Shown here: in pieces, positions 10,979-54,301 of the stretch
How positions within the stretch are numbered: the stretch's first letter is position 1
Layout: each line of letters starts with the position of its first letter
Origin: Dehalococcoidia bacterium
GTDB lineage: Bacteria > Chloroflexota > Dehalococcoidia > Plut-88900
Assembly (NCBI GenBank): GCA_965197585.1
Contig: OZ240215.1
Location: 288,001-352,000 of the forward strand
Direction of reading: 5' to 3'
Length of the DNA: 64,000 bases
The notes under the pieces: model-generated
The model's database searches: none
What the model saw: the letters and a program-made list of their open reading frames with translations, nothing else
Told to the model about the DNA's origin: nothing
Translations under genes and position numbers: made by a program

Positions 10979-11364
10979 CGCCATCGCCCGTAGATAGGTC
11001 TGGTGCAGAAAAAGTGCCTGAAGCCTAAGCCCTAGCCTAGCTGCACGGCCCTCCGACCCAAATCCCGGCTGCGTACTGAGTTACTTTAGGAAGTCGGGGC
11101 CTGTTTATGGGCCCGCTTTCTCGCTGCCTCTGATACGTTCGCGAAGCGGGCCGGGCCGCCGACACTGCCCGCAAGCATCTCAGCTGCCATCCTCTCTCAG
11201 TTGTTCTTGCCCACTCAAGAGCAGACCAAAATTAACCCCTCACCCGGTCACGAGGTGATGCGTCTCCACTACGCAATGTCTAGCCGCGCGCCCTTATGCC
11301 AAACCAGACATGAGTGCAGGGTAGTCTCGGAAAGGTTGGGCTAGCTTCAATAGGAAGGGGTTCT

Positions 11365-11418
11365 GGTAGACCAAGCGGTACTGTAGACAGAACTTTTCAG
11401 TGGGTAGTGCCACTTTAG
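11365..11418 (+). repeat. Serine-recombinase att-like arm, copy A (reads GRPSGTVDRTFQWVVPL*)
   Basis: GGTAGACC-N7-ACTGTAGACAGAACTTTT; 54 nt ending in a stop, collinear with the copies at 36094, 38706 and 41640. Confidence 0.65.
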
Positions 11419-36072: not shown

Positions 36073-36147
36073 GTTCTGTCTATCGTCAAGTTTGGTGGGC
36101 CGGGTAAGACTGAATTGCGAACTTTTCGGTGCGAGGTTTCTATCTGA
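36073..36147 (+). repeat. Right att junction of the integrative element fused to att arm B (reads GGPGKTELRTFRCEVSI*)
   Basis: GTTCTGTCTATCGTCAAG-TTT-GGTGGGCC-GGGTAAG-ACTGAATTGCGAACTTTT. Confidence 0.8.
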
Positions 36148-36280
36148 GGACCGCCAATCCCAGCCCAACTGAGGGAGCTCCGCGTAGGTGTGGCCCCGGA
36201 GCGTGTACAGCAGGGTCCAGTCAGTCGGATCTGCAAATGACTTTCCGAACGTCGACTGCGCTTTCCGGCAGTGTGCAGAG

Positions 36281-37366: not shown

Positions 37367-37415
37367 GATGTCGTGCGGTTTCTCTGCTCTTGGTCGGACG
37401 TGGCTCAGGAACAGG

Positions 37416-38180: not shown

Positions 38181-38705
38181 GCCTTTGTGTCGCTCCGTAC
38201 CGCTAGTTCCCGCTCAGACTACCGAGAAATCGAGGCGGGCGCAAATCGGACCGTCACGGGGTCGAGCGTCCGCTTCTCAGACGGGCTGATGCCGAAGGAC
38301 GGCGCAGCCTGCACCGTCCGCTCAGGACGGGGTAGCGATGCCCGCTTTCGACTCGTCGACTCCGTGCGTGGCGCTCCGTCGGGGCTGCCTTGAGAGCTCA
38401 CGGTCTCCAGCGAGCGGTACGAGAGTTCGAACACCCACGTCGGTTCACACCAGAGGCGAAGGTCCCTGCTTGCGAGCGGGCCCTGGACTCCACGGCGACA
38501 GAGCGGTCGCTGAGATTCCGTTCAACGCAGAACCTCCCCGTCCGAACAGCTCCCAGACGCTGGAGGTGAGGATCAGAACGGTGTCAGGACGACGCCTGTA
38601 GTCATACTCCGCTATGGGCTCTCAGCCGGTTCGTAGAGTGACCGGCGCCGTCGGGCCAGACCTTGGCGGACCACGCCGAACCTGCGACCGTCGTGGAGGG
38701 GTGAT

Positions 38706-38759
38706 GGTGGGCCTAAGAAGACTGAATTGCGAATTTTTCGGTGGGAGGTCCTCATATAA
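38706..38759 (+). repeat. att-like arm C (reads GGPKKTELRIFRWEVLI*)
   Basis: GGTGGGCC-TAAGAAG-ACTGAATTGCGAATTTTTCGGTGGGAGGT, collinear with 36094-36147. Confidence 0.75.
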
Positions 38760-38854
38760 GAGTCGGTCAGCCGACTCCAGATAAGTCCCCACGAGCCTCT
38801 GCTGGCGCAGGGCTGGACCGCGACTGCAGTGGGTGAGGCCCTGAGCAAGCATGC

Positions 38855-41323
38855 TCATCCCGTTGGCTGGTGGGCCACTGATTCGTTGAGGTCAGCGTTC
38901 CGGTCAACGCGCCACTTAATGTTTTCTATTTCGTAAGACAACATCGAACTCATAGGTAACCAATTGAAACCGTCTGAGGCGCTCTCCAAGTTGACCCATT
39001 GTGAATCTAAGTACTGGCGGAATGCTTCCGCCCTCGCCAATCGGTCATTTATATAGGCCACATCCGAAATTTTATCCCGCCATTCCCTTGCAACGATAGG
39101 TGTGTCTACCACTACCGCGTCAACATAAGTAAATTTGCCAATAAGTTTTTGGTAGTAATAGGAGCCTATTGTAGTGATCCTGTAGCGGCGCGGTTGAAAG
39201 TCGAACCGTTCCCCGACAACGTCCTTGGTTTCTGTTTCTACCAATTTCTGAGCGAGCAATTTTTCTAGTACGCCTGCTATTTGGATAGGTTGAAAACCGA
39301 GGGATTGGGCATACGCGTAGATCTCCTCAGCGTCGACGTATCCGCTGTTAGCCGGTGGCCTTGCTTCCGATCCGATGAACGCCAAAGCGATCGGTCCCAA
39401 GAAATGTTCCCTACCGTCCGGAGACCGTATGTCGAACAAATTCGCGATTTCGGATGCCCTTGGATCGTAATCTCGTTGATCACCATAGATCACTGCCCGC
39501 AAAAATTCATGCAAGGGTACTGTGTACGAGCCAGAATCGCGGTAAATTTCCAATATCTTACCCGTGTCGACGTTTCCACTGCCCACAAACACCCGGATGA
39601 AATCTAACGCCAGCCGGATGTTGCCTCCGCAAACGTTATCTACGAATTCGATCAATTCGACATTCTTGTCAAATGACAATTTAGTAACGCTCAGAAAATC
39701 CGATAAATCGTCGAGATTGACCGACATGCCCACGCCTTCAATCGATTGTCCGATCTGTCCAAGTGCCAAGAGATTGATTGCATATTGCAATCTTTTCTGT
39801 ATCACTCTATCGACCCTAGGTGGACTAATCGTAAACGCTTTGACATGGTACGCACTCAACGCCCCTCCAGCTTTTGATTTGTGAAAGGTTTCGGGGCGCA
39901 AAGAAACAAACACCATGGCTGGCCAAAGTTCGGCCATACTTTGACCGATCAAAAACGCTTTCTGCTGAAAATCGTCAGTGCGTTGGTCGACGTTGTCCAG
40001 AAATATCACGATCTGCTGTTTTCGCCCTTTGTGGATGTGTTCCAGGCACCGCTTAAGGTGTTCCTGCGTGTTGCTTATCTTGGATTCTAGAAGCGCAATT
40101 CTTTTCAGCTCGTATTCTGGTCGATTCAACTCGCGAAGGGACCCGTAGATGCCTTTATCAAACGATTGTAGATCGACGTTGTAGACGCCATGGACAAAAT
40201 TGCGGTCAGTAATGTCGATGGAGTACAACTCGTCTAACTGCCGCGAAATTTCTTCTTGGAGATAATGGTCTAACTCCGCTTCTAACGTTGGTTTGACACC
40301 CAAGTCTAGATACAGAATGATTGCGTCTTTGAGTATGTCCGCGGCCTCCACGTTGATGAAGTAGCGAACGAACATGGTCTTACCGACACCAACGTCACCG
40401 ATCAGTAATACAGGCCGACGAGTGGCACTCTGGGCCAACATCTCTGCAGTAATGACGGACTTCCCGCCTTTCTCTGTCGCCGGAGACAGCGATGGACCAG
40501 ATAAAGACTCTTGGAATGCTACAGAATATCTGGTTTGGAGAATGGATTTGCTGATCAGTGCGTATTGCGAAAGGGCACCGCTGTCGGCATAACAAGCGGT
40601 CAAAAACTCTTTCTCGTTCGGTGGAAGTTTACCCACGTCTTCGATGATCAGATCGCCAAAAATCTGTAGGTTTGATTGAAGTTCGTTGCGGACCTGATGT
40701 CTGGGGTAGTTATGTACTCGAACTGATAGCTTGTCCGGCGGAGGTCGATCGCCAGTGTTCTGGAGACGTGAGGCTAAGCCTCTAGCGGATACACCGTGAT
40801 GAGACAAGCAATCCCACAAGTCTCGGAATCCGTCGCGCATGTGGACCAGAGACGGTAACACCAAAGCTTGGCCTTTCATTGGTGCGATGCTGTCGGTGCG
40901 GCTCGCCAAGAACCCAACTATTTGATGACCATTGCAAACTGCACCGAAAGGAACTCCCCTTGTTTGACAATATGCCATCGCTTGCTCGACAGCTTTGAAT
41001 ACGTCGGGCGCTTCTCTCCGGAATCTTTCGAGCGGGTAGAAAAGGCCGTCAAACCCGGCAGGGATCGAAAAGTATACGTCCTCTTTCTTGGCTTCAACGA
41101 TAAGGGTTACGGAAGGTTTTCCGAGAGAGTAATCGGTATATGTGCCTTCGTGATTGTCCTCATTGGCGCAGTCCCATTTGTCCCACCCGAGGCACTCAAA
41201 CAGTAAGCGATCAATAAACTGAAGCCTCGTCGTCGCCTCATTCCTGTACGCTTCGTCAACCTCGGCAACTTCTGTAATGAGGTTGTCGAGGTTTTTTAGT
41301 GATTCCAAGTAATCAACTGCCAT
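38855..41323 (-). CDS. HsdR-N-type PD-(D/E)XK nuclease fused to a P-loop ATPase; candidate defence protein
   Basis: NEATTR..TDY..IVEAKK..QAMAY nuclease motifs; Walker A GDVGVGKT; Walker B IVIFLDNVD. Confidence 0.75.
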   Translation of the reverse strand: MAVDYLESLKNLDNLITEVAEVDEAYRNEATTRLQFIDRLLFECLGWDKWDCANEDNHEGTYTDYSLGKPSVTLIVEAKKEDVYFSIPAGFDGLFYPLERFRREAPDVFKAVEQAMAYCQTRGVPFGAVCNGHQIVGFLASRTDSIAPMKGQALVLPSLVHMRDGFRDLWDCLSHHGVSARGLASRLQNTGDRPPPDKLSVRVHNYPRHQVRNELQSNLQIFGDLIIEDVGKLPPNEKEFLTACYADSGALSQYALISKSILQTRYSVAFQESLSGPSLSPATEKGGKSVITAEMLAQSATRRPVLLIGDVGVGKTMFVRYFINVEAADILKDAIILYLDLGVKPTLEAELDHYLQEEISRQLDELYSIDITDRNFVHGVYNVDLQSFDKGIYGSLRELNRPEYELKRIALLESKISNTQEHLKRCLEHIHKGRKQQIVIFLDNVDQRTDDFQQKAFLIGQSMAELWPAMVFVSLRPETFHKSKAGGALSAYHVKAFTISPPRVDRVIQKRLQYAINLLALGQIGQSIEGVGMSVNLDDLSDFLSVTKLSFDKNVELIEFVDNVCGGNIRLALDFIRVFVGSGNVDTGKILEIYRDSGSYTVPLHEFLRAVIYGDQRDYDPRASEIANLFDIRSPDGREHFLGPIALAFIGSEARPPANSGYVDAEEIYAYAQSLGFQPIQIAGVLEKLLAQKLVETETKDVVGERFDFQPRRYRITTIGSYYYQKLIGKFTYVDAVVVDTPIVAREWRDKISDVAYINDRLARAEAFRQYLDSQWVNLESASDGFNWLPMSSMLSYEIENIKWRVDRNADLNESVAHQPTG

Positions 41324-41639
41324 TGTTGGCCCCTCGATTTGTAGGTTCTACGCCGCTCCCGCGAGCCAAACCCTTAGAATATGCTGCCCAGAGGTAAGGC
41401 ACAATCCACGATACATCGCACGCGCATCTAGGTCAACGAAACTGATTGTACCGGCCTCTTCCCGGCTTTGATCGCTATTCCAATTCCAAGCTGAACGGCG
41501 AATCGAACGGTGACGCGGTAGCGGCTGCTGCCCAAGGCAGACCATTGGCTTCATTGGAACATCGGATATCAACTCTGCCCAATAGAACAGAGACTTCGCG
41601 GTCGGCGGGTTATGAATTCAGTCTTGTTAGGTCGAAGAA

Positions 41640-41693
41640 AGTGGGCTAGAGGGGACTGTACTGCGAACTTTTTGTTGGGAAGTGTCGCTGTAG
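41640..41693 (+). repeat. att-like arm D (reads SGLEGTVLRTFCWEVSL*)
   Basis: AGTGGGCT-AGAGGGG-ACTGTACTGCGAACTTTTTGTTGGGAAGT; 54 nt to the stop, as in A, B and C. Confidence 0.7.
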
Positions 41694-41953
41694 GGAAGCG
41701 GAGTTGGTCAAGCGAGACTCTTCCAGGAGAAGGGCCGGTAGGCCTGCGGGGCCTGCGATGCCCACCTTGAGACGGGCTCCCGGGCATTCACCCTCCAGGA
41801 CTTTGCCGGCCAGTATGTCGGCTATGTCTGTCCGCCGTGCCATCCCAACCGCAAGTGGATGAACACCCTGTGGCGCAGCGTCCTCGGAGATGACTGGGCC
41901 ATCCAGCAGAGTCAGCAGACCCTGTCCGTCAACATTTTGACGCGCACAGTCCA

Positions 41954-42925
41954 TTAGATGATCTGGTCGACCTGCTCGTCAGAGAGGAAGTCCAGCGCAG
42001 CTTGCAGGTCTGATTTCTCCTGTCCGGGCGGCTGGGAGGGCAGCATCTCAAACCATGGCTCAGCAAGGTCATCGCGCACCCGCAAGAGGGGGGACCTCAG
42101 GAGGCTCAGAGTCGAAGAGGGCTGGAGCAGGCGGCCACCAGGGGTCATCTCGTAGGCGAAATGCAGCATAGGAGTGCCTCTCCAGCCGGGATAGGTCACG
42201 GTCGGCTTGGGTGTCACTCTGACACCGGAACTAGAAGCAGCTCGACCAATAATGTAGCTTAGAGTTCCATGAACAAGTCGTGCTGCTTCCTCATTGGCGT
42301 TCGTGCTATCGCCTAATAGACAGTCAATGACCTCTCTGGTCTCTCCGCTCACCTCTTTCCTCTCTTCAGACAGGAACTGTCGCATCTCATGCTTGTCTCT
42401 TCGGCCGTAACGCGACTCGACCGTAAGGATGAGAAGCCACGGCTGGTGCGCATCCAAGCGGTCATCGTTAAATAGGCGGTACAGAGCGTTGGCCCTATTC
42501 CGCACTACTCGGCCGCCCCTCTCGTAGGGTAGAAACTTCCCAAAGTAGTCCAAATAGACGACATCAAAATCCCAGATGTACCCCACACCGCGTTGATAGC
42601 TGTTCGAAACATGCCTCGGTGAGGGCCCCTTGCCCTTGTTCGTTAGTATGACGCGGTCGACGTCCCCTAGATGGGCTCTGGGCCGTAGGTGCCCATACTC
42701 AGTGCTAAGGACATGTTGCAGTCTCCTAAAGTTCCCGTGGCAAAACTCGACGGCGGCTACATACTCGCAAAGGTCACCCCAACTCTTTAGGTCTAGTGCC
42801 TGTACTCCGGGCAGCCCGAAGTACCGGATCGGGCCTCTCTTTCGGCGATGGGCGGCTTGGACTAATGGAAGGTCGTACTTTTCTCGAACTAGGTCCTTGG
42901 CTCTGCTGGACTGATAGCGCCCCAT
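41954..42925 (-). CDS. Hypothetical protein, possible Rossmann/SAM-methyltransferase-like fold
   Basis: IRYFGLPG..ALD, VAAVE, GDVD and FDVVYLDYFG are spaced like MTase motifs I, II, III and IV; assignment tentative. Confidence 0.5.
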   Translation of the reverse strand: MGRYQSSRAKDLVREKYDLPLVQAAHRRKRGPIRYFGLPGVQALDLKSWGDLCEYVAAVEFCHGNFRRLQHVLSTEYGHLRPRAHLGDVDRVILTNKGKGPSPRHVSNSYQRGVGYIWDFDVVYLDYFGKFLPYERGGRVVRNRANALYRLFNDDRLDAHQPWLLILTVESRYGRRDKHEMRQFLSEERKEVSGETREVIDCLLGDSTNANEEAARLVHGTLSYIIGRAASSSGVRVTPKPTVTYPGWRGTPMLHFAYEMTPGGRLLQPSSTLSLLRSPLLRVRDDLAEPWFEMLPSQPPGQEKSDLQAALDFLSDEQVDQII

Positions 42926-42935
42926 CGGCCGTACT

Positions 42936-44798
42936 TTAGATCTCTCTTTCTTCAGCTACAGAGTCGGCAATGGCACGCAGGACCGCCTCATACGCTTCGC
43001 CTCTTCCTCCAAGTCCTGCAACCAGCCCCCGATCAATTGCCCTGACAAGGCTCTCCTCATCAGCCTCCAAGTTGACTCCCTGCTGCACAAGGGCCTCCTC
43101 CAGCGAAACCGGTGCCTCCGCGGACCATCCCACAGCAACCCTCAGCTCCTTCCGGCAGGTTTCCACATCAGAATCCAGTTCGATACCGTCCGCCTTCAGC
43201 TCATCGAGAACGCCGACAGCCCGAGCCATCGCAACTGACTTCACGTGTGGCTGCAGCTCTGCCACCGCTCCCTTGAGTCGAGGCTCGCCAGAGTCCTCTG
43301 ATAGCGCCTCAACCGCCTCTAGAGTCCTGCGGAGTAGATCAGATTGGGGCGGGGGCTGCTTTGTCTGCTGCTTCTGCTTCTCGGTTCTCTGGTGCGCAGA
43401 CCTCTTCACCTGATTCAGCTGCGCCATCCAACCTTCTAGCCCCTTGAGAGCGTCCTCCAGTGCCTCCTGTTGGGCTACATCGAACCTCGGCTTCGGGCGA
43501 CCCCTGGTCGCCCTCATATGCCTCTCAATCTCTGCGTGTACATTTTCTAGTCCGCCGTGATGGGTTACAGCTTTCCTGTACACTTCAAAGGGGTCTGCGT
43601 CTGGAGCATCCTTCTCGATTCTCAGCTGCGCAACTATCCCTTCCATGTTGTCCAGGAGGCGCTCAGCACGTGCGCTTGCCTGCATGGCTCGTGCCTTACG
43701 GCTCATGGGATAGAAGAAGTCAGAGAGCTGTTTCTCGAAGAGTTGTTTACCGGGGTTGCTTTCCAAGTCGTCTCGAGCCGCGTTGGGATAGAGCCTTCCT
43801 GAGTCCAGAAGATGGACCTCGCCTGTATAGTGATGGTATAGGCTTCGTCCTCCAGTGGCAGGCCAGAGCGGCTTGAGCAGGTCTCGTCTACCCAAGGTGA
43901 ACCCTTTCATCTTCAGAAGGAATCCGCTTACCATAGCCCCTTCGTCCTGAGAAGGGATCTGTCGCCCGTTTGTGGATAGGGCATACCAGACAAACGCCAT
44001 CGGAGTACCATCTGGATGGTTGATCCAACCAATCTCGGGGCGGTAGACAGCTGCAGCCACGGGCGGCAAGACGTTTATCTCAACCTCTTCTGCGATTCTC
44101 AGGGTGACCCGGACCGGATTCAACTCCACATGGTCGACGAGCCATCCGTTGACCGTGCCTCCATAGCCCTCTGTACCAAACGCAACAGGGACCGTATTCA
44201 GCAGGTAATTGTTTACCTCTGAAGCATCATTCAGCTGAGCACGATACTCTTCATCGATCCCTTCAAGCTCCACAACAGTGAAATGGTCGTCAGGGCTACC
44301 TCTGTAGGGCTCCTCAAATAGTTCTGTGTATTCAAGCATGAGACCCGGCAGTCCAATCCCCTGCCTGATATCAAAGCTCTTGTCGGATTCAAGCAGGCGG
44401 CGCATCTCACCAAACCGAAATCTCCAGCCGACCAGGCCGGACATGCCCTCCTGGCGGCTTGAAATGGTCATCTCATCGCAGATACCGAATGCCGAGTAGA
44501 TTCCTATACCGCGAAACCCTACCGCCTGCATAGGGCTCTTGGCAGATAACCCAAATCTTCGCGCGTCTCGCATCTCATTGAGGTCCATCCCCGTCCCATC
44601 ATCTCTGATGACCGCCCGAGAGCCATCCACAGTGATAATGATGTTCCGAGCCTTGGCATCCACGCCATTCTGAACATACTCTCTCAGCGCGTCCTTCGCG
44701 TCGGAGTACAGGCCGCGAGACAGAATGTCGAGCAGCTCACCTCCAACCTCCCAGCTTTGAAACTGGACAGTCTGAGTCTTACGCTCACTTTGGGTCAT
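42936..44798 (-). CDS. GHKL (Hsp90/MORC-like) ATPase
   Basis: ALREYVQNGVDA, IRDDGTGM, GFRGIGIYS, PNAARD; coiled-coil C-terminus. Confidence 0.85.
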   Translation of the reverse strand: MTQSERKTQTVQFQSWEVGGELLDILSRGLYSDAKDALREYVQNGVDAKARNIIITVDGSRAVIRDDGTGMDLNEMRDARRFGLSAKSPMQAVGFRGIGIYSAFGICDEMTISSRQEGMSGLVGWRFRFGEMRRLLESDKSFDIRQGIGLPGLMLEYTELFEEPYRGSPDDHFTVVELEGIDEEYRAQLNDASEVNNYLLNTVPVAFGTEGYGGTVNGWLVDHVELNPVRVTLRIAEEVEINVLPPVAAAVYRPEIGWINHPDGTPMAFVWYALSTNGRQIPSQDEGAMVSGFLLKMKGFTLGRRDLLKPLWPATGGRSLYHHYTGEVHLLDSGRLYPNAARDDLESNPGKQLFEKQLSDFFYPMSRKARAMQASARAERLLDNMEGIVAQLRIEKDAPDADPFEVYRKAVTHHGGLENVHAEIERHMRATRGRPKPRFDVAQQEALEDALKGLEGWMAQLNQVKRSAHQRTEKQKQQTKQPPPQSDLLRRTLEAVEALSEDSGEPRLKGAVAELQPHVKSVAMARAVGVLDELKADGIELDSDVETCRKELRVAVGWSAEAPVSLEEALVQQGVNLEADEESLVRAIDRGLVAGLGGRGEAYEAVLRAIADSVAEEREI

Positions 44799-45133
44799 GG
44801 ATTGTACCTCCGTGTCCACATCACACCTACGGTGCGCCGATCGTCTGCTCGCGTTCGACCCTGGCCACCGCACTCCTCAACCGATAGTTGTCTTACGCCG
44901 CCCACAGAAATCAGATAGTTCGCCTCTCGATGACTGTCTTCACACATGCCATGGGCTATTGCGGTGGAGGGCGACGTCAGCAACACGCTTCGTGATCCTG
45001 GGAGGATAGTCCGCTGGGGCACGCTCGTCAAGGTTGACGAATGCAAGCGACGGTTTGTACAGATAAGTGCATTGTCAACACGGAGAATGAGGCTCAAAGC
45101 CCCGGTTCATGGCAGCCCCTCAATTAACCGCAT

Positions 45134-46141
45134 CTACCGTCCACGCTGCCTGTTAATGCGTTCAATGGACTGCTGGATCTTTCCAACCTCGTATAGGCAC
45201 TTGTCCTGCTGCTCAGGGGACATTCGCTCCAGGTCGGCCATGAACTCAGAGACCTGCAGTTCGCCTCTGAATCGCTTGAACCGGCGCAGCCAAATGTTTT
45301 TGACGCCACGGTCTTGAGCACTCTCGAATGCCCTATCAAATGTCTTGTCGCCGGACAGGAGGATCTTGGTAGGCTCTGACCCCACTTTTGCCACGTCGAG
45401 GAGTTTGACCAGCTTGTTTCTGACATCCACAGCGGCTGGAATTTCCCTGTGCTTAATCTTTACAACAACAATGTCATCAAGCGCCGGGTTTTCCCGACGA
45501 GCCTTTCTCACTATGTTGGACTTCAAGTACTCATCGTAGTAACTCCACCGTGTAACGCTGGTCTCATCGTGTTCAACCATGAACTTGTATGTGCTGATTA
45601 GGTGGTTCACCGTTCTCACCGGTATTCCCATCTCGCTTGCCATACTCTCGGCACTGACCCCATGGGTGACATTCCTGCGGTATAGGTACCCCGCCTGTTC
45701 GTAGGGAGCCCAGTCCTTTCTGCCGATGATATGGTATTCACCGAGCAGCGCAAACACGAGCTTCTCGCTGATGTCAGAAGGCAGCAATCGAACTTTGGCC
45801 TTGCCCCAGTTTATGGCGTCGTTTCTAGCAAGCTCGCGGTACGCGGCAAGCCGGCTGTTTCCTTCAAGCACTACGAGGTCGCCATCCTTCACAAGCATGG
45901 GGTCGGTCAGTCCTCCGTTTGCCCTGATCGACTGAATTAGTTGCTTGACGTGGTCCAACCCCTTCAGACGATTGAATATCTCATCCTGGGACGGTTCAAC
46001 ACCCGGCCTTTGGATTAGCGAATAAATCCTTGGGTTCTCTGAATAAAAGCTGAGGTCGTGGACTGGAAGATACCCGCTCCGAACCGGTATCTCCTGACCA
46101 CCAAGTGTAAGGGTGTCGTTTACCCACGTAGAATCAGCCAT
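45134..46141 (-). CDS. ParB/Srx-like domain protein
   Basis: ENPR, SIRANGGLTDP, LVVLEGNSRLAA, W.PYEQA, then an HTH-like segment. Confidence 0.75.
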   Translation of the reverse strand: MADSTWVNDTLTLGGQEIPVRSGYLPVHDLSFYSENPRIYSLIQRPGVEPSQDEIFNRLKGLDHVKQLIQSIRANGGLTDPMLVKDGDLVVLEGNSRLAAYRELARNDAINWGKAKVRLLPSDISEKLVFALLGEYHIIGRKDWAPYEQAGYLYRRNVTHGVSAESMASEMGIPVRTVNHLISTYKFMVEHDETSVTRWSYYDEYLKSNIVRKARRENPALDDIVVVKIKHREIPAAVDVRNKLVKLLDVAKVGSEPTKILLSGDKTFDRAFESAQDRGVKNIWLRRFKRFRGELQVSEFMADLERMSPEQQDKCLYEVGKIQQSIERINRQRGR

Positions 46142-46162
46142 TATCCGTGTCTCCCGATTGGT

Positions 46163-47632
46163 CTATGCATCCAATATGGCTCGCAGGATGCCCCCAAATT
46201 CGTAGGACATCTCCTTTTGATAAGTCTCCCTGTCGATGTCTCCCTGTGCGAGCTGTGCTGCGACCCGTTTGGAGTGAAGCAGCGCCTCAACCCATTCGTC
46301 TATCGAATCGCGCATAATCAGGTTGTGAACGTGGCAGACCCTGTCCTGGGATATCCGATGTATCCTGTCCTGCGCCTGCAGATAGTCGTCCAGACTGAAC
46401 AGCCGGTCGTAGAAGATAACGTGGTTCGCTACGGTAAGTGTCAGACCTTCCTTGGCGGAGCCTGGAGTCGCAATGAACACCTTGGCACTCGGATCATCGA
46501 GAAATGTGCGAATCGCAACGGTCTGGTCCCTTGTGCTCAACATGCCGTGGACCAGCTGAGGATTGTGCCTGCGCAGAATTCTTGCCAGCCACTCAACGTT
46601 GTCAACGAACGACGTCCAGACTATGCACTTTTCCCCATTTCCGACTATCGATGAGACGAGCTCAAGCAGGGTCTCCAGCTTCCCGGGCTCGACCTGGTAG
46701 CTTGAGTCAATGAGGTTGGGATTCGACGTAATCTGTACCAGCCTGAGCAGGCGTTTCAACACCACGTCCGACTCATCGGCCATGAGCTGCCCGTCTTGGA
46801 AGATGATAGCCCGCAGAGATTCCCTGACCTGCCTGTACAGGTCCTGCTGACGAGGTTCCCATTCGGTCACCACGGAGTGAACAACCTTGTCAGGAAGGCT
46901 TATCTCGGCGCTTGCCTTGGTCTCCCTTACGGCAAACCCCGATATGGATTGGAAGATGCGCCGTAGCTGAATCTCCAGGGCCTTCTGCCGGCTTTCAACA
47001 CCCGCCATGTCATTCGACAGGTCCACTGATCGTTTAAATGCCCCAAAATCATTTCCAAGCGACGACCCGCCGTCGAGGAACTTGATCTGCGACCAGATGT
47101 CATGTGGTCGATTGGAAACTGGAGTCCCGGACATAATCACTCGCCTAGTGAATAGAGGAGCGAGATCAAAGAATGTCTTGGTGAGAGCCGTGTCGGGGTT
47201 CTTGATCTTAGTTGACTCGTCGAGAATCACCCCGACATTTCTAGTCCTTAGAAATAGATGCATTCGCTCCTTCTCGGCCCTCACGGCCTCGTAGTGAGCG
47301 AGCATAATCCGGGCGGGGCTGTTGAAGACGTAGAAGTTTCCCCCACGGTTATTGGTCAGGACACGAGGAGTGAGTCGAGAGTGGGAAGAAAGTTCCCTCT
47401 GCCAGTTGTCAAGGAGTCCCTTCTTGACAACGATCAAAGCGGTGTCCAATAGCCGATTAGACAACCAGTAGACAATGAGGTCTATAGCAACCTTCGTCTT
47501 TCCCAACCCCTGTTCATGGAATATGGCGGCATACCTGAGGTCCTTGACCGCATTGACAGCTTCCAGTTGGTATGCGAAAGCCTCGTGCTTCAGGGTGAGG
47601 TCTGGCTCTCTCTTTAGTGTCAGCTTTTGCAA
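46163..47632 (-). CDS. SNF2-family helicase/translocase
   Basis: EQGLGKT, ILDES, SGTP, EGLTL, QAQDRIHRISQ. Confidence 0.9.
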   Translation of the reverse strand: MQKLTLKREPDLTLKHEAFAYQLEAVNAVKDLRYAAIFHEQGLGKTKVAIDLIVYWLSNRLLDTALIVVKKGLLDNWQRELSSHSRLTPRVLTNNRGGNFYVFNSPARIMLAHYEAVRAEKERMHLFLRTRNVGVILDESTKIKNPDTALTKTFFDLAPLFTRRVIMSGTPVSNRPHDIWSQIKFLDGGSSLGNDFGAFKRSVDLSNDMAGVESRQKALEIQLRRIFQSISGFAVRETKASAEISLPDKVVHSVVTEWEPRQQDLYRQVRESLRAIIFQDGQLMADESDVVLKRLLRLVQITSNPNLIDSSYQVEPGKLETLLELVSSIVGNGEKCIVWTSFVDNVEWLARILRRHNPQLVHGMLSTRDQTVAIRTFLDDPSAKVFIATPGSAKEGLTLTVANHVIFYDRLFSLDDYLQAQDRIHRISQDRVCHVHNLIMRDSIDEWVEALLHSKRVAAQLAQGDIDRETYQKEMSYEFGGILRAILDA

Positions 47633-48096
47633 TGGGTCGACCTTCCTGACGTGGTCACCGTACCGGTCCGATTTGCCTCCGAAAGAACTACGGTTTCAGC
47701 GTGAGGCAATCCCTCTCTGACCTGGAGATTCGTTAGTAATGCCCTGGCCAGTCTCTCAATAGGCCATGGAACCGCCAGTATGAGGGCCGAGCCTTCCACC
47801 ATCCCGCATCTTCTCAGGAATGCCGTGACCTGAGATTCTGTATGCGAGTTCTCCAGATCCCTCATGCTCTTGGCTTCGCCTATGACTACTCTTCCCTGTT
47901 GGTTGAGCATGACATAGGCGTCCGGCACGTACCCTTCAATAGATGGTGGGCGAGTACGCGATTCACTGCTGACGGAGTCGGTAAAGACGCGTTCCCGTTG
48001 ACCCTCGCAGAATCTATCCGCGATGTAGCTGTGGAGTATGGCAACCAAATTTGAGTGTTCCTCTGACTCAGGCACCAGTAGGAGAGGGTGAGGCAA
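47620..48096 (-). CDS. Small PD-(D/E)XK-like protein
   Basis: ESEEH...GYVPDAYV...IGEAKS; overlaps both neighbours. Confidence 0.6.
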   Translation of the reverse strand: MPHPLLLVPESEEHSNLVAILHSYIADRFCEGQRERVFTDSVSSESRTRPPSIEGYVPDAYVMLNQQGRVVIGEAKSMRDLENSHTESQVTAFLRRCGMVEGSALILAVPWPIERLARALLTNLQVREGLPHAETVVLSEANRTGTVTTSGRSTHCKS

Positions 48097-49135
48097 TGTC
48101 CCTGCAGAGTTCAGCCAACTGATCCCTGGCCTCTGTTAGGGTATGATTTTCCGGAGTGTCTAGGTCTTCACGAAGACGACGCAGGTCGGTGTAGCTCATT
48201 TTGTCTATGCGGTCCAGGAGCGCATTGGCGAGCTGGGCAAGTGTGGCGTCCTCCAGTGCCTCTACCGTAGAGGGACTGTCAAGAACCTTTTCCGCCTCGC
48301 GAGCTCCATGTGACAGAAATACTTTTCTGGACTCCGGATTTGCGAGGATAGGCGGGAGCCTTCTGACTCGGTCGGATGGATACATAAGCTGGTTGTTGAC
48401 CCAACTGGCGAAATCTGTCTTAGTGTAACCCGAGGTTACGAGAGCTTCCTGCACCCGCGGTGCTTGCATTTCGAGGAAAGCGCTGAACCGCGTTTGGTCA
48501 AACTGGTCATCACTAGTAAGGAGTGGGCGGTAATGATCCTCCATGTCGTTGTAAGCGTCGATGAATCGGTGCACCTCCGTCCTCTGCCCGCCGCAGAAAT
48601 CGATGATCTGATCAGTTGTCAGGTGCTCCGAGTTGCTTAGATAGTCCAGGTACTTGGCCTTCGAGTAAGGGTCCCATTGTCTTGGGCCGACCAGGTGAGC
48701 CTGTAGCCGAATGGCATCGATTTCCTTTTCGTCGAGTTGGTCGTACACGATTGCGGGAATTTCGTCCCATCTGCCACTATCATCGTCACTCCTGAACTGG
48801 CGGTAGATAAGGGCACGGGTATTTCCCTCAATGACGACAAGCCTGTTTTGATTCTCCCTGTTGACCAAGATGGGATGGATAAGACCTCCATGAGTCCTTA
48901 TCGATGCCCTCAGACTCTGGAAAGTGGTTGTGTTCTCACCTTGCTGGTAGTTGGCGGCGCCGAGAGCCAGGCTCATCTGGTCATCGGTTACATCGCCGCC
49001 GTACATCTCAATATAACGCGCCACCCGGGGATTGGACGTATCGAGCACTAGCGTCTCGACCGGAAGCATCGCGAATTGACCGTTTTTTGCAACCATACTG
49101 TTTCTCTCCAGCGGCACATCAACCGAGCGTGTCAC
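48068..49135 (-). CDS. ParB/Srx-like domain protein
   Basis: SNPR, SIRTHGGLIHPI, LVVIEGNTR, WDPYSKA; paralog-like to 45134..46141. Confidence 0.75.
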   Translation of the reverse strand: MTRSVDVPLERNSMVAKNGQFAMLPVETLVLDTSNPRVARYIEMYGGDVTDDQMSLALGAANYQQGENTTTFQSLRASIRTHGGLIHPILVNRENQNRLVVIEGNTRALIYRQFRSDDDSGRWDEIPAIVYDQLDEKEIDAIRLQAHLVGPRQWDPYSKAKYLDYLSNSEHLTTDQIIDFCGGQRTEVHRFIDAYNDMEDHYRPLLTSDDQFDQTRFSAFLEMQAPRVQEALVTSGYTKTDFASWVNNQLMYPSDRVRRLPPILANPESRKVFLSHGAREAEKVLDSPSTVEALEDATLAQLANALLDRIDKMSYTDLRRLREDLDTPENHTLTEARDQLAELCRDIASPSPTGA

Positions 49136-50736
49136 TACCTCGTCATTAGTGTCCCTGTATCATCCAGAGCCAGCCGGGCCTGGGAGTAATTTCCGATCCT
49201 TCTGTCTGGGTTTATGTCGGAGCTGTTTTGCCCGACCCTGGACGCTTCTGCGAACACCATTTCAATCAACTCTCTAGCGGTGCCCGGTGAGTGCGCGAGA
49301 GTCGCCAAAGCACCAAACACCCTCTGGTAGACGACAACCTCCGAGGAAGGTATGTCGCCGAGCCACTGCAGCTCCGTCTCAACTGAAAAGTTGTTCAATT
49401 TGCCTTCCGCATTATCGAGCCTCTCAAGAGTGTGCTTATCGATATTGTCATTACCGATGCTCTCGCGAACCTCCTCGACCTCCCGCAGCGCCTCCTGAAC
49501 CAGGTCGGCCGAGTCCTCTGCAGTTAGGTAACCGGACGTTGCCAGGGCATAGAGGTCCTCGATATTGCACAGTACCGTGAGAGCCTTCCTTGCATGGTTT
49601 CGAGCCGCGGACTCTCGCCTACACCGCGTGCTTAAGTTGCGTATCACGGGGGTCAGCTGGTTTTCGAGGTTTCGCAGGTGGGGTCCAGGTTCAAAGTAAT
49701 CACGCCTGGCGTTGGGAATGATTCGTGAGTCCAGGATATTCAGCTCCCCCACACACCATCGGTTGAAGCGTTCTTCTGTAAAGAGGTCGTCGAATACCGC
49801 CTCGCCACCAATCTGTATATTACCCATCCTGGCCCTGATGCCACGCACCCGCTGCTCTTTTGGGATCGCGCCCAGGTAGGACGAGTGCGCGATCCAACCA
49901 AGGACCGCCTCGCCGTTTCCGTCGACGCTCGGCATGCGGACCACCTCGAACTCCGTGAATTCGGCCTCCTTGTTTGCCGAGACTCGGATTGATGCCCCGT
50001 AAGGTCTTTCTACCGGTTTTGGATCTCCTTCCAGCAGAACTTCCAATGTTAGCGGCGCCTCAATGCCATAGAACAGTCCCTCGACTTTCTCGGCAAAGGG
50101 AAACTCTGAACTCATAGGCACTGGGCACACTTCGCCAACATAGTCGCGGACCGCGTCACGATTCAGTAGCAGTCCTGCGGAGTGACGCGCCACGTCTCCG
50201 ACTTCGACTTCGAAGAAATGATCAGGATGATCAGAATCTGGCAGGGCCTCCACATCGACGCGGTCAAGAATGGCCTCCTCAAGCTCCGACTCCGTGGAGG
50301 CCAGCTCGGTAAGCCGGTCGCTATGCCATGTGATTCGGGTTACCGCCTGATCCTCGTCGGCACGTGTGGTGAATGAGACTGTCTTTGCAAAGGCAAGTCC
50401 GGCGAGCCGTCCGACGCCACGGAAGCCCCTATCGATTCCCAGTGCCTTGTCACTGCGGCCAATGGGCAGTAGCCGTTCAAGTGCTTCCTTGCGGGACAGT
50501 CCAGGGCCGTAGTCTCGAATCCTGACTCGGCGTTCACTAACATCAATCGCGATATCTACCCTTGCTTTTCCAGGAAACCCGCTTCTCGTAACCGCGTCAG
50601 CTGCATTCTGTATGTACTCCCGGTATATGGACAGCGGGTTGCCGTACATCCCTGTTGTTACTAGCCCGAGAAGTCCCGCACCCGAGAGCCCCGGTGTCTC
50701 GTGACGGTCTAGCATACTATTCATATCGGCACTCAA
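49135..50736 (-). CDS. GHKL (Hsp90/MORC-like) ATPase
   Basis: IYREYIQNAADA, IRDYGPGL, GFRGVGRLAG, IPNARRDYF. Confidence 0.85.
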   Translation of the reverse strand: MSADMNSMLDRHETPGLSGAGLLGLVTTGMYGNPLSIYREYIQNAADAVTRSGFPGKARVDIAIDVSERRVRIRDYGPGLSRKEALERLLPIGRSDKALGIDRGFRGVGRLAGLAFAKTVSFTTRADEDQAVTRITWHSDRLTELASTESELEEAILDRVDVEALPDSDHPDHFFEVEVGDVARHSAGLLLNRDAVRDYVGEVCPVPMSSEFPFAEKVEGLFYGIEAPLTLEVLLEGDPKPVERPYGASIRVSANKEAEFTEFEVVRMPSVDGNGEAVLGWIAHSSYLGAIPKEQRVRGIRARMGNIQIGGEAVFDDLFTEERFNRWCVGELNILDSRIIPNARRDYFEPGPHLRNLENQLTPVIRNLSTRCRRESAARNHARKALTVLCNIEDLYALATSGYLTAEDSADLVQEALREVEEVRESIGNDNIDKHTLERLDNAEGKLNNFSVETELQWLGDIPSSEVVVYQRVFGALATLAHSPGTARELIEMVFAEASRVGQNSSDINPDRRIGNYSQARLALDDTGTLMTR

Positions 50737-52355
50737 ACGAGCTGCGTACCCTTGATTGCGAGTGCTTCATCATGGTCGAAGAGACCGGCATCTTCAACAA
50801 TTTCGTCCTCTTCTAGGTAAGGACCATTAGCAGTCATTTCCGACATGAGCCCAGAACCGTGCGCCTTAGCGTCTTCCCTGGTGTCCAGCCCGTGGAATAT
50901 CATCAGCTGTCGGATTTTCTGGTCGACCGTTTGGTCACCCGCCAACTCCCGGAAATGGTTCGGCCCCATTCCATTCCCGTTAGATGGAGTAGCCAGCAGA
51001 TACATTAGTTCATTCTCCTGGGACTCTGAAAGGCTTCTACGAAGGGATTCGTACTCCTCCCTGTGGGCTCGCCCCTCTCCATCCTCAAAATGCTCACGAT
51101 GGAATATGAAGGCATGCGGTAGCCTAAGCAGCCGCTCGAACTCCTCAGCATTTTCGCCATAGGCTCTAAGGAAGAATGACGGACTGCCGCTCACAACTCC
51201 CTTGGTTGCCTGGAGCATGAGTTGGAATGAACGGAGGTAGTAGCGATTCCAATTCTTCCCCACGTGCGACCGGTCCTTCAATGTCACGGGCTGGTAACGC
51301 ATTGGGAAGGACCAGATACGGATCCCCAGCTCTTCATTGAGGTCGATGTTGAGCCGCATTCGCTGGTAGAGGTCTTTTGGAGTGTCCTTAAAGTTGTACA
51401 GCATGTAATTTGACAGGGATGTGATCTGGTTGTCAGCCGCCATACGAATAGACTGCTCGTAGACTTTTCTAACGCCGATGTGATCGAAGGCAATTCGCAG
51501 CGGGCTGATGCAGATGGTGGACATTTCCCGTAGGAACATCTCTGACTTGGCGAGGATTCGTGCATCCACCCCCTGGTTGAAGTCCACCCGTCGCTTGACT
51601 GGCCTGTTACCATCCCGTGTCAGTTTCGCCCCAGGCGTGAAGCCCAGATCACGTATCTCGGCAATCACCTCCTTGTAGCGGGCTGATGCGGTTATATTAT
51701 TGTCCATAAGCACGAGGTCCTTCTTCTCCCCGTGCCTTTCTGTCACCCCTTCAACAAGATTGGTAAGAGGAGGCATTTCGCGTTGCGCACCCTCCAGCTT
51801 TGGTACGCCACAGAATGAGCACTTCCTCACGCATCCACGAGACGCGTAGCCGAAGTACGCATCATTGACCGGGTAGCTGTAGTCGATATGGTCGAGGATG
51901 TCATAGTTAGGGACTAATTCCTCAATAGGTATGCCGGTCAGGTCGTCAGAACCAAACTCATAGTTCTCCGCCGACAGTGCTAGAGCCGCTGCCGGGGGGC
52001 CATCCAACAACCCTTTGATAAAACGAACGCCTGCCCATCTGGGCTCGTTCAAAAAGGCTTCGTGCATGAGAGAGACTGCAATGCCGCCGGCAAACACGCG
52101 CTCCGGCTGATTGCCTGCCGCGCGTATAGCGAAATCGATAGCAGATGCCGTGCGCTTCCACTCGAAACTGAATAACGTGGTGACATACACCCTGTCCCAC
52201 GCTCGATTCAACACTTCCTTGTCTTCGCCTTTTATAAATGTGACACGGTCTCCTCGACCAAAGGAGCCGTGATAAGTGGCAAGTTTCATCAGGCCCAGCG
52301 GCGGATACTTGTTTGGGTAGCCGGGCTCAATAAGAAGAATATCCCTCGACGGCAT
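50733..52355 (-). CDS. Radical SAM protein with N-terminal B12-binding-like domain
   Basis: GCVRKCSFC (CxxxCxxC), ASRGC, DNN, DFNQGVD; N-terminal LLIEP...YPPLGLMKL. Confidence 0.88.
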   Translation of the reverse strand: MPSRDILLIEPGYPNKYPPLGLMKLATYHGSFGRGDRVTFIKGEDKEVLNRAWDRVYVTTLFSFEWKRTASAIDFAIRAAGNQPERVFAGGIAVSLMHEAFLNEPRWAGVRFIKGLLDGPPAAALALSAENYEFGSDDLTGIPIEELVPNYDILDHIDYSYPVNDAYFGYASRGCVRKCSFCGVPKLEGAQREMPPLTNLVEGVTERHGEKKDLVLMDNNITASARYKEVIAEIRDLGFTPGAKLTRDGNRPVKRRVDFNQGVDARILAKSEMFLREMSTICISPLRIAFDHIGVRKVYEQSIRMAADNQITSLSNYMLYNFKDTPKDLYQRMRLNIDLNEELGIRIWSFPMRYQPVTLKDRSHVGKNWNRYYLRSFQLMLQATKGVVSGSPSFFLRAYGENAEEFERLLRLPHAFIFHREHFEDGEGRAHREEYESLRRSLSESQENELMYLLATPSNGNGMGPNHFRELAGDQTVDQKIRQLMIFHGLDTREDAKAHGSGLMSEMTANGPYLEEDEIVEDAGLFDHDEALAIKGTQLV

Positions 52356-52604
52356 CAGGACCTCCTAGGAAGCGACCGTGCATTAGATTCGGAGGCTATT
52401 CTATGCCAATAACAGGTTGGTTGCATTCCTTTGTGTAAATTGGCTCGCACCGAATGTGCGATTGCACTTTTGAATGCTTTCAAGGGCAGAAAAATACTTT
52501 GGCTCGATTTATTGATGTATCGATACTTCCATGATTTACGGTCTTCAAGATCGAAAGTCGCGTCTGAATTCTGCTCAGTCTTGATGAAGCTCTGAATCTT
52601 CCTC

Positions 52605-52850
52605 GCCTTTCACCATGCGGTATCCGACGCGGCGCTCGGTGAAAATGTAGGCGGGATGGTCAGGGTCGTAGCTCAGCTTGCGCCGGAGCTGCTTCGCCGC
52701 AGTGCGGACCCGCTGCAAGTCGCCGAAGCAGTCCGTTCCGCACCGCCCAGACCACCACCGCCGCCTCCCCGTCCCTGGCGTGCCCGGCCACCTCGAACTC
52801 CCCGTACCCCTCCAGTATGAGCCACAGACTGCCCCTCATGACAGGGCAAG
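52605..52850 (-). pseudogene. Chimeric response-regulator debris (NarL N- and C-termini joined, plus OmpR-type wHTH tail)
   Basis: GEFEVAGHARDGEAA joined directly to VVVWAVRNGL; another frame reads KQLRRKL..DPDHPAYIFTERRVGYRM. Confidence 0.6.
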
Positions 52851-53082
52851 GCATAGACAAATGCCTATAAGCAGTATGGTTCATACCCCCTTGATGCCTT
52901 CAGTTCCTTGGACTAAAGTTCAGGAAATAAATGAATGCTGGACGGGTATTTCCACCTGGCCGGTTTGCCTACTTAGACCCCCTCATTTCGAGGCTGAGCC
53001 CACCGCACCAGGTAGAGGGACATATCGCATTCCAGCCGGAATCTGACGGAATCCAGTCCGATGGAGACGAGTCCTGAATCCA

Positions 53083-54300
53083 GTGACCACAGTGGCCAGC
53101 GGGTTCCCCGCCTTCCTGCGGAGCTTCGACCTGCCGGAGCCGGGGGAACTGCGCCGCGTGGCCAGGGTCTATGTATGGGGACGCTGGTTCGTCCTGTCTA
53201 TTGCCGCGTTCGCCTGGCTGTATCCGCTCAACGTCGACGAGGTGGTGTATGGGCCGAACGTCGCCCTTGCCATAGTGCTGTTCGCCTCCAACGGATATCT
53301 GCACTACCGGCTCGTCACGGAAAGGAGCGTGTCCTGGAGATGGATGCTTACGCTGAGCGCACTGGACCTGGCGATGCTGAGCGGAGGGGTTGCGGCGCAC
53401 CGCGAGTTCGAGTCACCCTTCTTCGTGGGGTACTACCCATCCCTCGCCCTGTTCGCGGTGGTCTTCGGATCGGTCAGGCTCACCCTCGTCTGGGTGACGA
53501 TGGCGGCGGCCGTCTACGCGGCGCTCTGTCTCGCAGTCGAGCCCGGGGTGGACTTCTCGGCGAATGATGAGGAGATACTGCTTATAAGGATAGCCGGGAT
53601 GTACACGGTGGTGGTTGTGGTCAACCTGATCTCCAGGGTGGAGCGGATCAGGCGGATGGAGGCGGTGGAGAGGGAGCGGGCGCTTCAGCGGGAGCGCATC
53701 GAGCTCTCCCACGCCATCCACAACACGATGGCCCAGTCCGCCTACATGATCGGGATGGGCATCGAGCGGGCGAAGGGGCTTGCCGACCGGTCGAACGAGG
53801 ACCTGATGTCCACGCTCGACGAGACCTCGGCCATGTCGCGGTCGGCGATGTGGGAGATGAGGCACCCGATGGAGATCGGGGAGATCTTCGAGGGGATGGA
53901 GCTTGGCGGGGTGCTGGAGTCGCTGGCGGCGACCTTCTCGACCATCTCCTCCATACCCGCCGACCTGGTGCAGACAGGCGTGGAGCCGCCCCTGCCAATC
54001 GCAACGAGGGGAGCGCTGTTCTCCATCGCCTTCAACGCCCTGACCAATGCTCTCCGACACTCCAATGCGAGTCACGTCCGCGTCGGCCTCGACTTCGAGG
54101 GGGACGGGCTGCGGATGTCGATTGCCGACGACGGGACCGGTCTCCCCGACGACTACGCGACGCGGGGCCAGGGCTTCAGGAACATGAGGGAGGAGGCCGA
54201 ACGCATGGGCGGCAGGCTCGTCGTGGAGACGAGCGGGTCCCAATGGAGGACCGCGGTGACCTGCGTGCTTCCCTATAGGCATATGAGAGGAGGGAGCTGA
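53083..54300 (+). CDS. Membrane sensor histidine kinase (HisKA_3/NarX-type)
   Basis: Several TM helices, ERIELSHAIHNTMAQ, NALTNALRHS, IADDGTGL, GQGFRNM. Confidence 0.88.
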   Translation: MTTVASGFPAFLRSFDLPEPGELRRVARVYVWGRWFVLSIAAFAWLYPLNVDEVVYGPNVALAIVLFASNGYLHYRLVTERSVSWRWMLTLSALDLAMLSGGVAAHREFESPFFVGYYPSLALFAVVFGSVRLTLVWVTMAAAVYAALCLAVEPGVDFSANDEEILLIRIAGMYTVVVVVNLISRVERIRRMEAVERERALQRERIELSHAIHNTMAQSAYMIGMGIERAKGLADRSNEDLMSTLDETSAMSRSAMWEMRHPMEIGEIFEGMELGGVLESLAATFSTISSIPADLVQTGVEPPLPIATRGALFSIAFNALTNALRHSNASHVRVGLDFEGDGLRMSIADDGTGLPDDYATRGQGFRNMREEAERMGGRLVVETSGSQWRTAVTCVLPYRHMRGGS

Positions 54301-54301
54301 A

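Follow-up and report, generated by a model that had tools for sequence, protein, structure and literature searches.

What does a radical S-adenosylmethionine (SAM) enzyme do in a restriction-like operon? The question is raised by a locus of a Dehalococcoidia bacterium (GCA_965197585.1; source genome, G000) within a stretch of 64,000 nucleotides (contig OZ240215.1, positions 288,001–352,000), here called the window. The original prediction was that six genes, g1 to g6, form one operon in which the radical SAM enzyme fills the place of the DNA modifier. We find a locus that is real, intact, mobile and unnamed, and we consider with moderate confidence that it encodes a radical SAM DNA writer with swappable restriction modules, that is, a modification-dependent system against invaders.

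Gene Content of the Locus

The six predicted open reading frames (ORFs) were all found on the minus strand, free of internal stops. We refer to g1 and g2 as the core. The g1 gene (50733..52355) encodes a radical SAM enzyme of 540 aa with an N-terminal B12-binding-type Rossmann domain, the proposed DNA writer, and g2 (49135..50736) an Hsp90-like GHKL ATPase of 533 aa. The ParB-nuclease-SNF2-ParB genes g3–g6 are termed the cassette. The 355-aa product of g3 (48068..49135) has a ParB/Srx nucleotide-binding domain and a helical region, g4 (47620..48096) encodes a small PD-(D/E)XK nuclease-like protein of 158 aa, g5 (46163..47632) a minimal SWI2/SNF2 ATPase of 489 aa, and g6 (45134..46141) a second ParB-fold protein of 335 aa, a paralogue of g3. 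Two further genes, g7 and g8, are termed accessory. The junctions between g1 and g6 were as predicted, with overlaps of 4, 1, 29, and 13 nt and a 21-nt gap before g6, and the expected motifs were all present and conserved across homolog alignments. The GC content of the six genes is 0.541 compared to 0.593 for the genome, where they are single-copy.

In the Pfam scan Radical_SAM (g1) and ParB_N (g3) stayed below cut-off, HATPase_c_3 was found in g2 and SNF2 with Helicase_C in g5, and g4 and g6 gave none. PADLOC returned weak ParB-domain matches for g3 and g6 (PDC-M38A, PD-Lambda-5_A) and motor-domain matches for g5 (ZorD, DpdE, DrmD), with no match for g1, g2, or g4, and all NCBIfam scores were far under cut-off. 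The six genes thus match no named system among the PADLOC and NCBIfam models, as had been proposed. Promoter and terminator scans were at chance level (7 vs. 6.0 and 6 vs. 9.5, respectively).

Conservation of the Gene Grouping

A scan of a genome collection with g1, in which 6868 of 8000 protein candidates were scored, gave 63 loci. Their titles include Chloroflexota, Pseudomonadota, Acidobacteriota, Spirochaetia, Nitrospira, Bacillota, and others, with the closest relatives in genomes titled Dehalococcoidia. The full four-gene cassette was present in 42 of the 63 loci and a GHKL gene adjoined the radical SAM gene in 59, across many phyla. The predicted co-occurrence is therefore conserved, and the gene grouping is not chance. 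The radical SAM gene occurred without the cassette in 21 of the loci; in restriction-modification (R-M) systems, methylases occur without endonucleases.

The cassette depends on the radical SAM enzyme. We searched in the reverse direction with the g3 alignment and considered the top 80 among 577 metagenome loci. Where these had 2 kb of flank on each side, the radical SAM gene was always present (21 of 21), and where they had 1 kb past g6 it was found in 38 of 40; the other two are L087, which is transposon-broken with a short flank, and L097, whose contig starts inside the GHKL gene. On plasmids, the full enzyme was found in 12 of 19 matching records, and all seven plasmids with a g3 relative also had a full radical SAM gene within ~6 kb. 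Intact versions were found on pR132505 (Rhizobium leguminosarum) and pNL1 (Novosphingobium), whose hosts can be cultured and are not pathogens.

The spread is patchy. None of eight same-genus genomes searched carried g1, and carriers amounted to 10/301, 12/401, and 4/401 genomes in three sampled groups (~1–3%, seed genomes included). Plasmids, prophages, and islands carry relatives, with recombinases and transposases as neighbors. This mobility, the ParB folds and the att-like repeats that bound the locus would suit a selfish module of mobile elements that serves addiction or maintenance, or a role in partition or repair, with little anti-phage function. We consider such a role very unlikely: no ParA partner was found in the related loci, the partner genes described below are repeatedly parts of known defense systems, and addiction and defense can coexist. 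From 188 filtered cluster representatives, a subset of 133 flanking ORFs was scanned, 23 of which matched PADLOC at E 1e-8, some spuriously; since this figure has no control, an enrichment in defense islands is not claimed.

The gene order expected from the window was not fixed. Among 69 six-gene loci the cassette came first in 37, the order of the window was found in 15, and convergent and divergent arrangements in 14 and 3, respectively. With four arrangements, a fixed six-gene order was rejected; that of the window is a minority form, found mostly within a single clade of closely related loci.

Two Separately Inherited Modules

Inheritance was compared in 42 dereplicated loci, with trees made by FastTree; the locus pairs are not independent. 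Median pairwise identity was 0.56 for the radical SAM enzyme, 0.51 for SNF2, 0.43 and 0.38 for the ParB proteins, 0.33 for GHKL, and 0.29 for the nuclease. Identities correlated at 0.80 between radical SAM and GHKL and at 0.63–0.82 within the cassette, compared to 0.06–0.31 across the two. The trees gave the same picture: radical SAM and GHKL had 20 supported splits in common (of 28 and 25) and the cassette genes 10–11 (of 18–21), while across the modules 4–5 were in common and 14–21 conflicted. Locus L017, for example, has ~86% radical SAM identity to L001-type loci and 48% SNF2 identity. The core g1–g2 and the cassette g3–g6 are thus two modules with their own histories, and the single fixed six-gene system of the original prediction gives way to a two-gene core combined with one of many swappable modules.

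Because near-identical cores pair with distant cassettes or unrelated modules, a shared product, such as a mark, is likelier to connect the modules than a fixed protein interface. Free reassortment would fit a shared small molecule equally well. The radical SAM enzyme might, like viperin or OxsB, make a diffusible modified nucleotide on infection, sensed by ParB or DGQHR proteins, with interchangeable effectors firing in the manner of CBASS and the GHKL ATPase as the infection switch. The ParB/Srx and DGQHR domains bind nucleotides, judging from fold comparisons, which agrees with this. For reasons found in the enzyme fold and in the partner genes below, we regard such a signal as unlikely.

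The Core Proteins

The cluster motif CxxxCxxC of g1 (C175/C179/C182) was present in 151 of 153 homologs, with 99% conservation at these positions. In the predicted model (pLDDT 84.7) the motif lies on a partial TIM barrel, as in class B radical SAM enzymes. The best Foldseek match was the protein methylase MgmA (E 5.8e-11), and TsrM scored 1.9e-10. The VIA rows gave AprD4 (Z 16.9; rmsd 3.6 over 361 aligned residues), MgmA (15.7), TsrM (15.3), RimO (14.4), MiaB (14.2), TokK (13.6), and OxsB (12.9), and the eight best were all class-B enzymes and methylthiotransferases with Z 12–17. The two-domain architecture is common to g1 and the class-B enzymes, which aligned over 317–383 residues at 10–18% identity. 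Residues 1–140 of the model aligned with the cobalamin domains of methionine synthase and AerR (Z 8–9), with receiver domains tying. The Pfam B12-binding model was above cut-off in homolog L169 only, below cut-off in three other homologs, and without a match in g1 itself; two other B12-binding proteins over cut-off are encoded in the source genome. As modeled, g1 is a class-B radical SAM fold with an N-terminal cobalamin-binding-type Rossmann domain; it is predicted to use cobalamin and may transfer a methyl group.

A search for auxiliary Fe-S cysteines in the 153 homologs gave just three alignment columns with Cys in more than 50% of the sequences; a fourth column reached 45%. Since the conserved cysteines are those of the cluster motif only, the two-cluster methylthiotransferases are excluded and their chemistry is ruled out for g1, which scored 15–18 bits with the MiaB and RimO NCBIfam models at cut-offs of 251–357. 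A prokaryotic viperin was likewise rejected: no PADLOC or viperin NCBIfam match was seen at E 0.05, and viperin ranked 22 in the fold comparison. Its Z of just 8.5, compared to 12–17 for the class-B enzymes, speaks against the diffusible nucleotide, while the presence of OxsB among the close folds speaks for it. Searching the PDB by sequence gave weak RimO/MgmA cluster-motif matches only and no close solved relative of g1. The enzymes MgmA, TsrM, TokK, CysS, OxsB, and AprD4 have proteins or small molecules as substrates; g1 has a C-terminal helical region of its own.

The GHKL boxes of g2 (REYIQNAAD, DYGPG, and GFRGVG) contain residues invariant in the homolog alignment (E40, N44, D75, G77, and G104–R110), HATPase_c_3 was above cut-off, and all four GHKL ATP-binding motifs are present. 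An earlier label of MORC type did not hold, as the nearest solved structures are the N-domains of Hsp90/HtpG rather than MORC. This likeness spans residues 18–143 only. The MORC S5 motif GhXhhpXXRhl, as given in PMC2292703, was not found in g2, where the conserved stretch reads RGxRARxGNxQxG in an alignment judged by eye.

A protein methylase as best match of g1, Hsp90-like N-domains as closest solved relatives of g2, and the tight co-inheritance of the two would all fit an enzyme of MgmA or RimO type that modifies a protein, which could be its GHKL partner, an effector, or a protein of the phage. The Hsp90-like ATPase would present this client, and the modification would hold the nuclease modules in check, as a guard or an antitoxin does. 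Unrelated modules would then need a common protein substrate, radical SAM relatives without an adjacent GHKL gene occur (L184–L187, L166, and L197), and the Hsp90 similarity is of limited extent. We therefore give protein modification little credence. A complex prediction of g1 (residues 1–492) with g2 (15–500) scored 0.00 and counts neither for nor against any of these readings.

One short radical SAM subfamily was seen in L114 (293–1396), L179 (4732–8745), and L180 (4998–6089). It was found before the ParB cassette, before PbeA (as a longer protein), and, with no such partner, in the replication region of a phage.

Partner Modules of the Radical SAM Enzyme

Loci were drawn evenly from the class (12), the phylum of a Butyricicoccus genome (12), and the phylum of a Nitratireductor genome (3). 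The ParB cassette was found in 2 of these 27. The other contexts were NurA-HerA-GHKL (6), PbeA-PbeC (4), DrmA-DrmB-NERD (2), BrxD-like sets (2), DGQHR-HEPN (2), GHKL with a putative cyclase (2), the g7-g8 pair (2), and other or cut loci (5); the labels NurA, HerA, HEPN, and cyclase derive from weak matches, the annotation of a phage, or motifs judged by eye. The family centered on the radical SAM enzyme is larger, with the six-gene form as one of its variants. The evenly drawn partners are mostly DNA motor-nuclease sets (HerA-NurA, PbeA/C, DrmAB, and the SNF2 cassette), which does not favor a diffusible signal.

The idea that the radical SAM enzyme sits in the position of a DNA modifier gained contextual support from the Pbe, PD-lambda-5, and DrmAB neighborhoods; modification of DNA as such is what this context suggests. 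The strongest part of the contextual case is four Pbe loci. In 4 of the 12 loci of one phylum's even sample, PbeA (E <= 5e-218), PbeC, and a small gene were followed by the radical SAM gene, and these four branch from no fewer than three parts of the radical SAM tree. Two of the four small genes matched the Dnd-associated TIGR04062 below cut-off. No C5 methylase was found on the contigs of these loci, and DndC was not found in the four genomes by a search that gave no positive control over cut-off (0/14 control genomes). A short radical SAM relative directly before PbeA in L179 makes a fifth Pbe locus. According to Rakesh et al. (PMC10853773), such CxC/Pbe cores take either phosphorothioate genes or a cytosine methylase as partner.

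In the L166 prophage the radical SAM gene comes immediately after a full PD-Lambda-5_A gene (E 8e-72), with no methylase ORF. Vassallo et al. (PMC9519451) describe PD-lambda-5 as a compact restriction-modification plus abortive infection (RM+Abi) system with a methyltransferase match. A search for more loci with PD-lambda-5A and radical SAM returned the same contig only, plus two partial plasmid matches. DrmA-DrmB-NERD-radical SAM-GHKL was found in L160, L199, and L201, and DpdB-like DGQHR genes lay near the radical SAM gene in 10 (short type) and 9 (long type) of the 63 loci. In phage DNA, L172 has the radical SAM gene within a ParB-Dcm module and LoVEphage has it two genes ahead of Dam, and stand-alone copies in the phage replication regions of L163 and L167 resemble orphan methylases. 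A short phage-type relative stands directly before the same ParB-SNF2 cassette in L114. No DNA methylase model matched the ten locus proteins (Pfam, PADLOC, NCBIfam) or the 133 flanking ORFs of related loci. Relatives in the positions of methylases or DndC, or alone in phage replication regions, are not what a diffusible signal would lead one to expect, whereas partners such as HEPN, PIN, a putative cyclase, and membrane proteins are. The cyclase-HSP90-radical SAM context is also read as toxin-antitoxin-like in the section of bioRxiv 10.64898/2026.10.19.760177 that mentions it.

Three further arrangements were observed. On the viral contig L169 (5076–10606) the type IV CRISPR genes cas8, cas7, and cas5 directly precede a g1-family radical SAM gene and a second radical SAM gene. 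In L185 (1701–10044) and L187 (8277–16336) a pair of BrxD-like ATPases is encoded together with a small PLD-like protein, a HerA-like ATPase, and two proteins of no assigned kind, and the radical SAM gene comes last. A triad of radical SAM, GHKL, and putative nucleotide cyclase genes was found in L171 (1737–6091), L189 (8400–12583), and L192 (7961–12173).

Proposed Mechanism

For the DNA writer with swappable restriction modules, we propose that g1 together with g2 would mark host DNA constitutively with a radical-derived mark, most likely a carbon-linked methyl, and that g2 may act as a clamp driven by ATP or help g1 to mature. The ParB pair g3 and g6 would load on DNA, the SNF2 motor g5 would translocate, and the small nuclease g4 with the cassette would cut DNA lacking the mark. 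DNA as the substrate, methylation, cobalamin use, the role of g2, the order of the cassette steps, and defense itself are all what we infer here.

Several points weigh against a DNA writer. Its functional support comes from gene context throughout, and a DNA-binding domain was not identified in g1. The top VIA row for g1 was AprD4, a dehydratase by its entry title, with OxsB near too, and the fold therefore does not prove methylation. AprD4 is not known to use cobalamin, and AprD4 and OxsB have the same fold yet are not known as methylases. Some partners look like suicide effectors (DGQHR-HEPN, PIN, the putative cyclase, and a putative membrane protein). PD-lambda-5A, type IV CRISPR, and ParB-Dcm are each represented by one locus, and two of four phage regions (phiCT453B and vir215) have no annotated methylase nearby. 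DISARM methylases could lie outside the stretches fetched for the DrmAB loci, and the genomes in which DndC was sought, with the uncontrolled search described above, may be incomplete. The correlation across modules reached rho 0.17–0.63 in 24 ParB-seeded loci; for this reason, and because locus pairs are not independent, reassortment is taken to be frequent and not complete. According to section 16 of PMC10853773, Pbe/CxC systems are also found separately from Dnd and may work by killing the cell.

A bolder form of the DNA writer, which we hold tentatively and with less confidence than the modification-dependent system itself, is that g1 founds a widespread cobalamin-dependent family writing a new carbon-methylated or radical-derived base or sugar into DNA. 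It would be a portable writer for at least five unrelated restriction modules (the ParB-SNF2 cassette, HerA-NurA, Pbe, DrmAB, and PD-lambda-5A), which phages carry alone as anti-restriction. If true, this would be a new DNA-modification chemistry in bacterial immunity, with radical methylation at positions beyond those of ordinary methylases, and the writer would join methylases, phosphorothioation, and 7-deazaguanine as sources of DNA marks. It would account for the modifier-less Pbe, DISARM-like, and PD-lambda-5-like loci, and unrecognized marks would be expected in long-read data.

Comparison With Known Systems

The locus resembles Dnd/Pbe in combining a core that scans DNA or is a nuclease with an exchangeable modifier, and g1 relatives adjoin PbeA-PbeC and DndB-like DGQHR genes. 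It differs in lacking PbeA/C and DndD and in that the proposed writer is the radical SAM-GHKL pair. From the Dnd/Ssp/Pbe set the locus has only a weak motor match of g5 to PbeA (E 2e-6), and DndC was not found in G000 by a search without a positive control over cut-off. With Dpd the family has in common the ParB-superfamily DpdB-like genes flanking the enzyme in relatives, and g5 resembles the DpdE motor domain (E 4e-34). However, no DpdA or DpdC match was seen in the ten scanned genes, the window has no DGQHR gene, and the scores are far below cut-offs. In g3 and g6 the N-terminal ParB domain gave a weak match to PD-Lambda-5_A (E 2e-5 to 1e-3), but over the N-terminal 80–90 residues only; no B-gene match was found and the other genes are unrelated. 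PD-lambda-5 is itself compact and has a classical methyltransferase (PMC9519451).

The MORC/paraMORC R-M operons of PMC2292703 likewise bring together a GHKL ATPase, a SWI2/SNF2 helicase, and a restriction-fold nuclease. They carry DNA methylases according to that paper, whereas no classical DNA methylase was found in the g1–g6 operon, and the words "radical" and "ParB" do not occur in the paper's main text.

Other systems were equally distant. From the DISARM set (DrmA, DrmB, DrmC, and a methylase), only partial matches of g5 to DrmD were seen (25–31 bits vs. cut-offs of 610–950). A partial BrxHI helicase match was all that was found of BREX (PglZ, BrxC, PglX-type). For Zorya type I, g5 with its 489 aa reached 90.8 bits against a cut-off of 1500, with no ZorA/B/C match, and for Mza, g7 reached 22 bits against 850 for MzaB with no other Mza match.

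The literature search found no paper describing the system; an earlier computational mention is possible. Section 32 of bioRxiv 10.64898/2026.10.19.760177 has one clause on a PAACC cyclase-HSP90-radical SAM neighborhood, with no function assigned there to the radical SAM protein. The triads of L171, L189, and L192 are probably that neighborhood, a sister variant to the locus studied here, which differs in having no cyclase in the window. "Radical SAM" occurs only in a reference in the part of the Tiamat preprint consulted. It is probable that the system works like modification-dependent restriction, outside every tested family, its novelty being the writer chemistry.

Cassette Proteins

The ParB_N match of g3 had E 1e-4, below cut-off, and the predicted model matched the nucleotide-binding domains of ParB/Noc/KorB and sulfiredoxin (E 9e-7, Z 10–11). 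The g6 protein is 28% identical to g3 over 201 aa, and NPR and GNxR (EGNxR here) are invariant in both homolog alignments. Most g3 homologs start near 49096 rather than 49135. In g4, PD58-59 and EAK74-76 were found, with P58, D59, K76, D80, and Q89 invariant and E74 nearly so among 20 homologs. As g4 had zero matches in Pfam, PADLOC, and NCBIfam, its nuclease-fold assignment rests on the motif. The motor g5 matched SNF2-rel_dom (E 1.6e-27) and Helicase_C (E 5e-14) and has the motifs GLGKT, DEST, and QAQDRIHR. L034 (5616–8801) has a variant cassette with three ParB-fold genes, and the gene order differs in L034 and L151.

Accessory Genes

The g7 gene (42936..44798, minus strand) starts 335 nt after g6 and encodes a second GHKL ATPase of 620 aa, counted from an ATG with a ribosome-binding site. 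With HATPase_c_3 at E 1.7e-14 and 23% identity to g2, it is by sequence a distant g2 paralogue. The g8 gene (41954..42925, minus strand) encodes a PP_RS20740-family protein of 323 aa. It matched NF047698 under cut-off (E 2e-9), its homologs carry PF28273, and its Atlas neighbors were PF28273 and Methyltransf_35 (0.93). As a lead only, g8 probably has a SAM-methyltransferase fold; a PDB sequence search gave nothing meaningful, and no relative was found in the plasmid search.

The g7-g8 pair was near the radical SAM gene in 10 of the 63 related loci, at several separate positions on the radical SAM tree, and in L008, L057, L182, and L193 it adjoins the radical SAM gene without the ParB cassette. 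In a 401-genome phylum sample both strong g8 matches outside G000 lay within 8 kb of a radical SAM gene, and two weak ones were in genomes where no radical SAM gene was found. A contig of another study (record 21) covers g6-g7-g8. The local unit is probably eight genes, g1–g8, with g7-g8 a likely optional second pair of ATPase and SAM enzyme for further modification or as backup. Another accessory pair, a PIN-domain protein with a third GHKL type, was observed in L064 (5135–8643), L065 (13218–16734), and L026 (13165–16618). It appears that the GHKL paralogues act as adaptors, with several kinds of partner.

Boundaries and Neighboring Genes

The unit had been placed next to a nuclease-ATPase gene and beyond an att-like site. 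The former gene exists (38855..41323, minus strand), but the co-oriented g7 and g8 lie between. It encodes a nuclease-NACHT/STAND-like ATPase of 822 aa (GC 0.487) with NACHT/AAA matches below cut-off. Its N-terminus bears a restriction-like nuclease motif, and no PADLOC match had an E below 0.036. As a part of the system it was rejected: relatives were found in 0 of the 63 related loci, and it is separate cargo. Located between two repeat copies, it is a candidate stand-alone defense gene.

A repeat is indeed present at the att-like site, but it belongs to a degenerate 45-nt family (D16) with copies elsewhere in the window and genome, and its att role is putative. The copy at 41639..41683 closes the unit downstream, with contig joints and loose ends at 41628–41680. 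Others lie at 38705..38749, at 36093..36137 with many loose ends at 36055–36093 in four runs, and at 11364..11408, just after a serine-recombinase-like gene (label read from sequence); ~10 more, weaker copies are spread across the genome. The copies separate unrelated cargo blocks, and contig joints connect them in several metagenomes. This is consistent with, and not proof of, the copies being recombination sites, possibly a cassette-like array of serine-recombinase sites. One weak contig joint skips 36099–52730 (side of 28 letters); it may stem from repeats or other organisms and was not used. No tRNA was found in the window, the nearest being ~24 kb ahead of its start and ~31 kb past its end, and a tRNA-anchored island is unsupported.

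Upstream of g1, at 52600–54766, two-component-like sensor and response-regulator genes are found. A 96-nt inverted repeat (52751–52846/54343–54438) there suggests a decayed duplicate regulator. An integrative element at 11456–30327 has, by labels read from sequence, serine-recombinase-like, VirB4-like, and membrane conjugation-type genes, a gene for a helix-turn-helix-repeat protein, and one for a repetitive surface protein of 2824 aa. A 1413-aa protein similar to the latter is encoded at 57768–62009.

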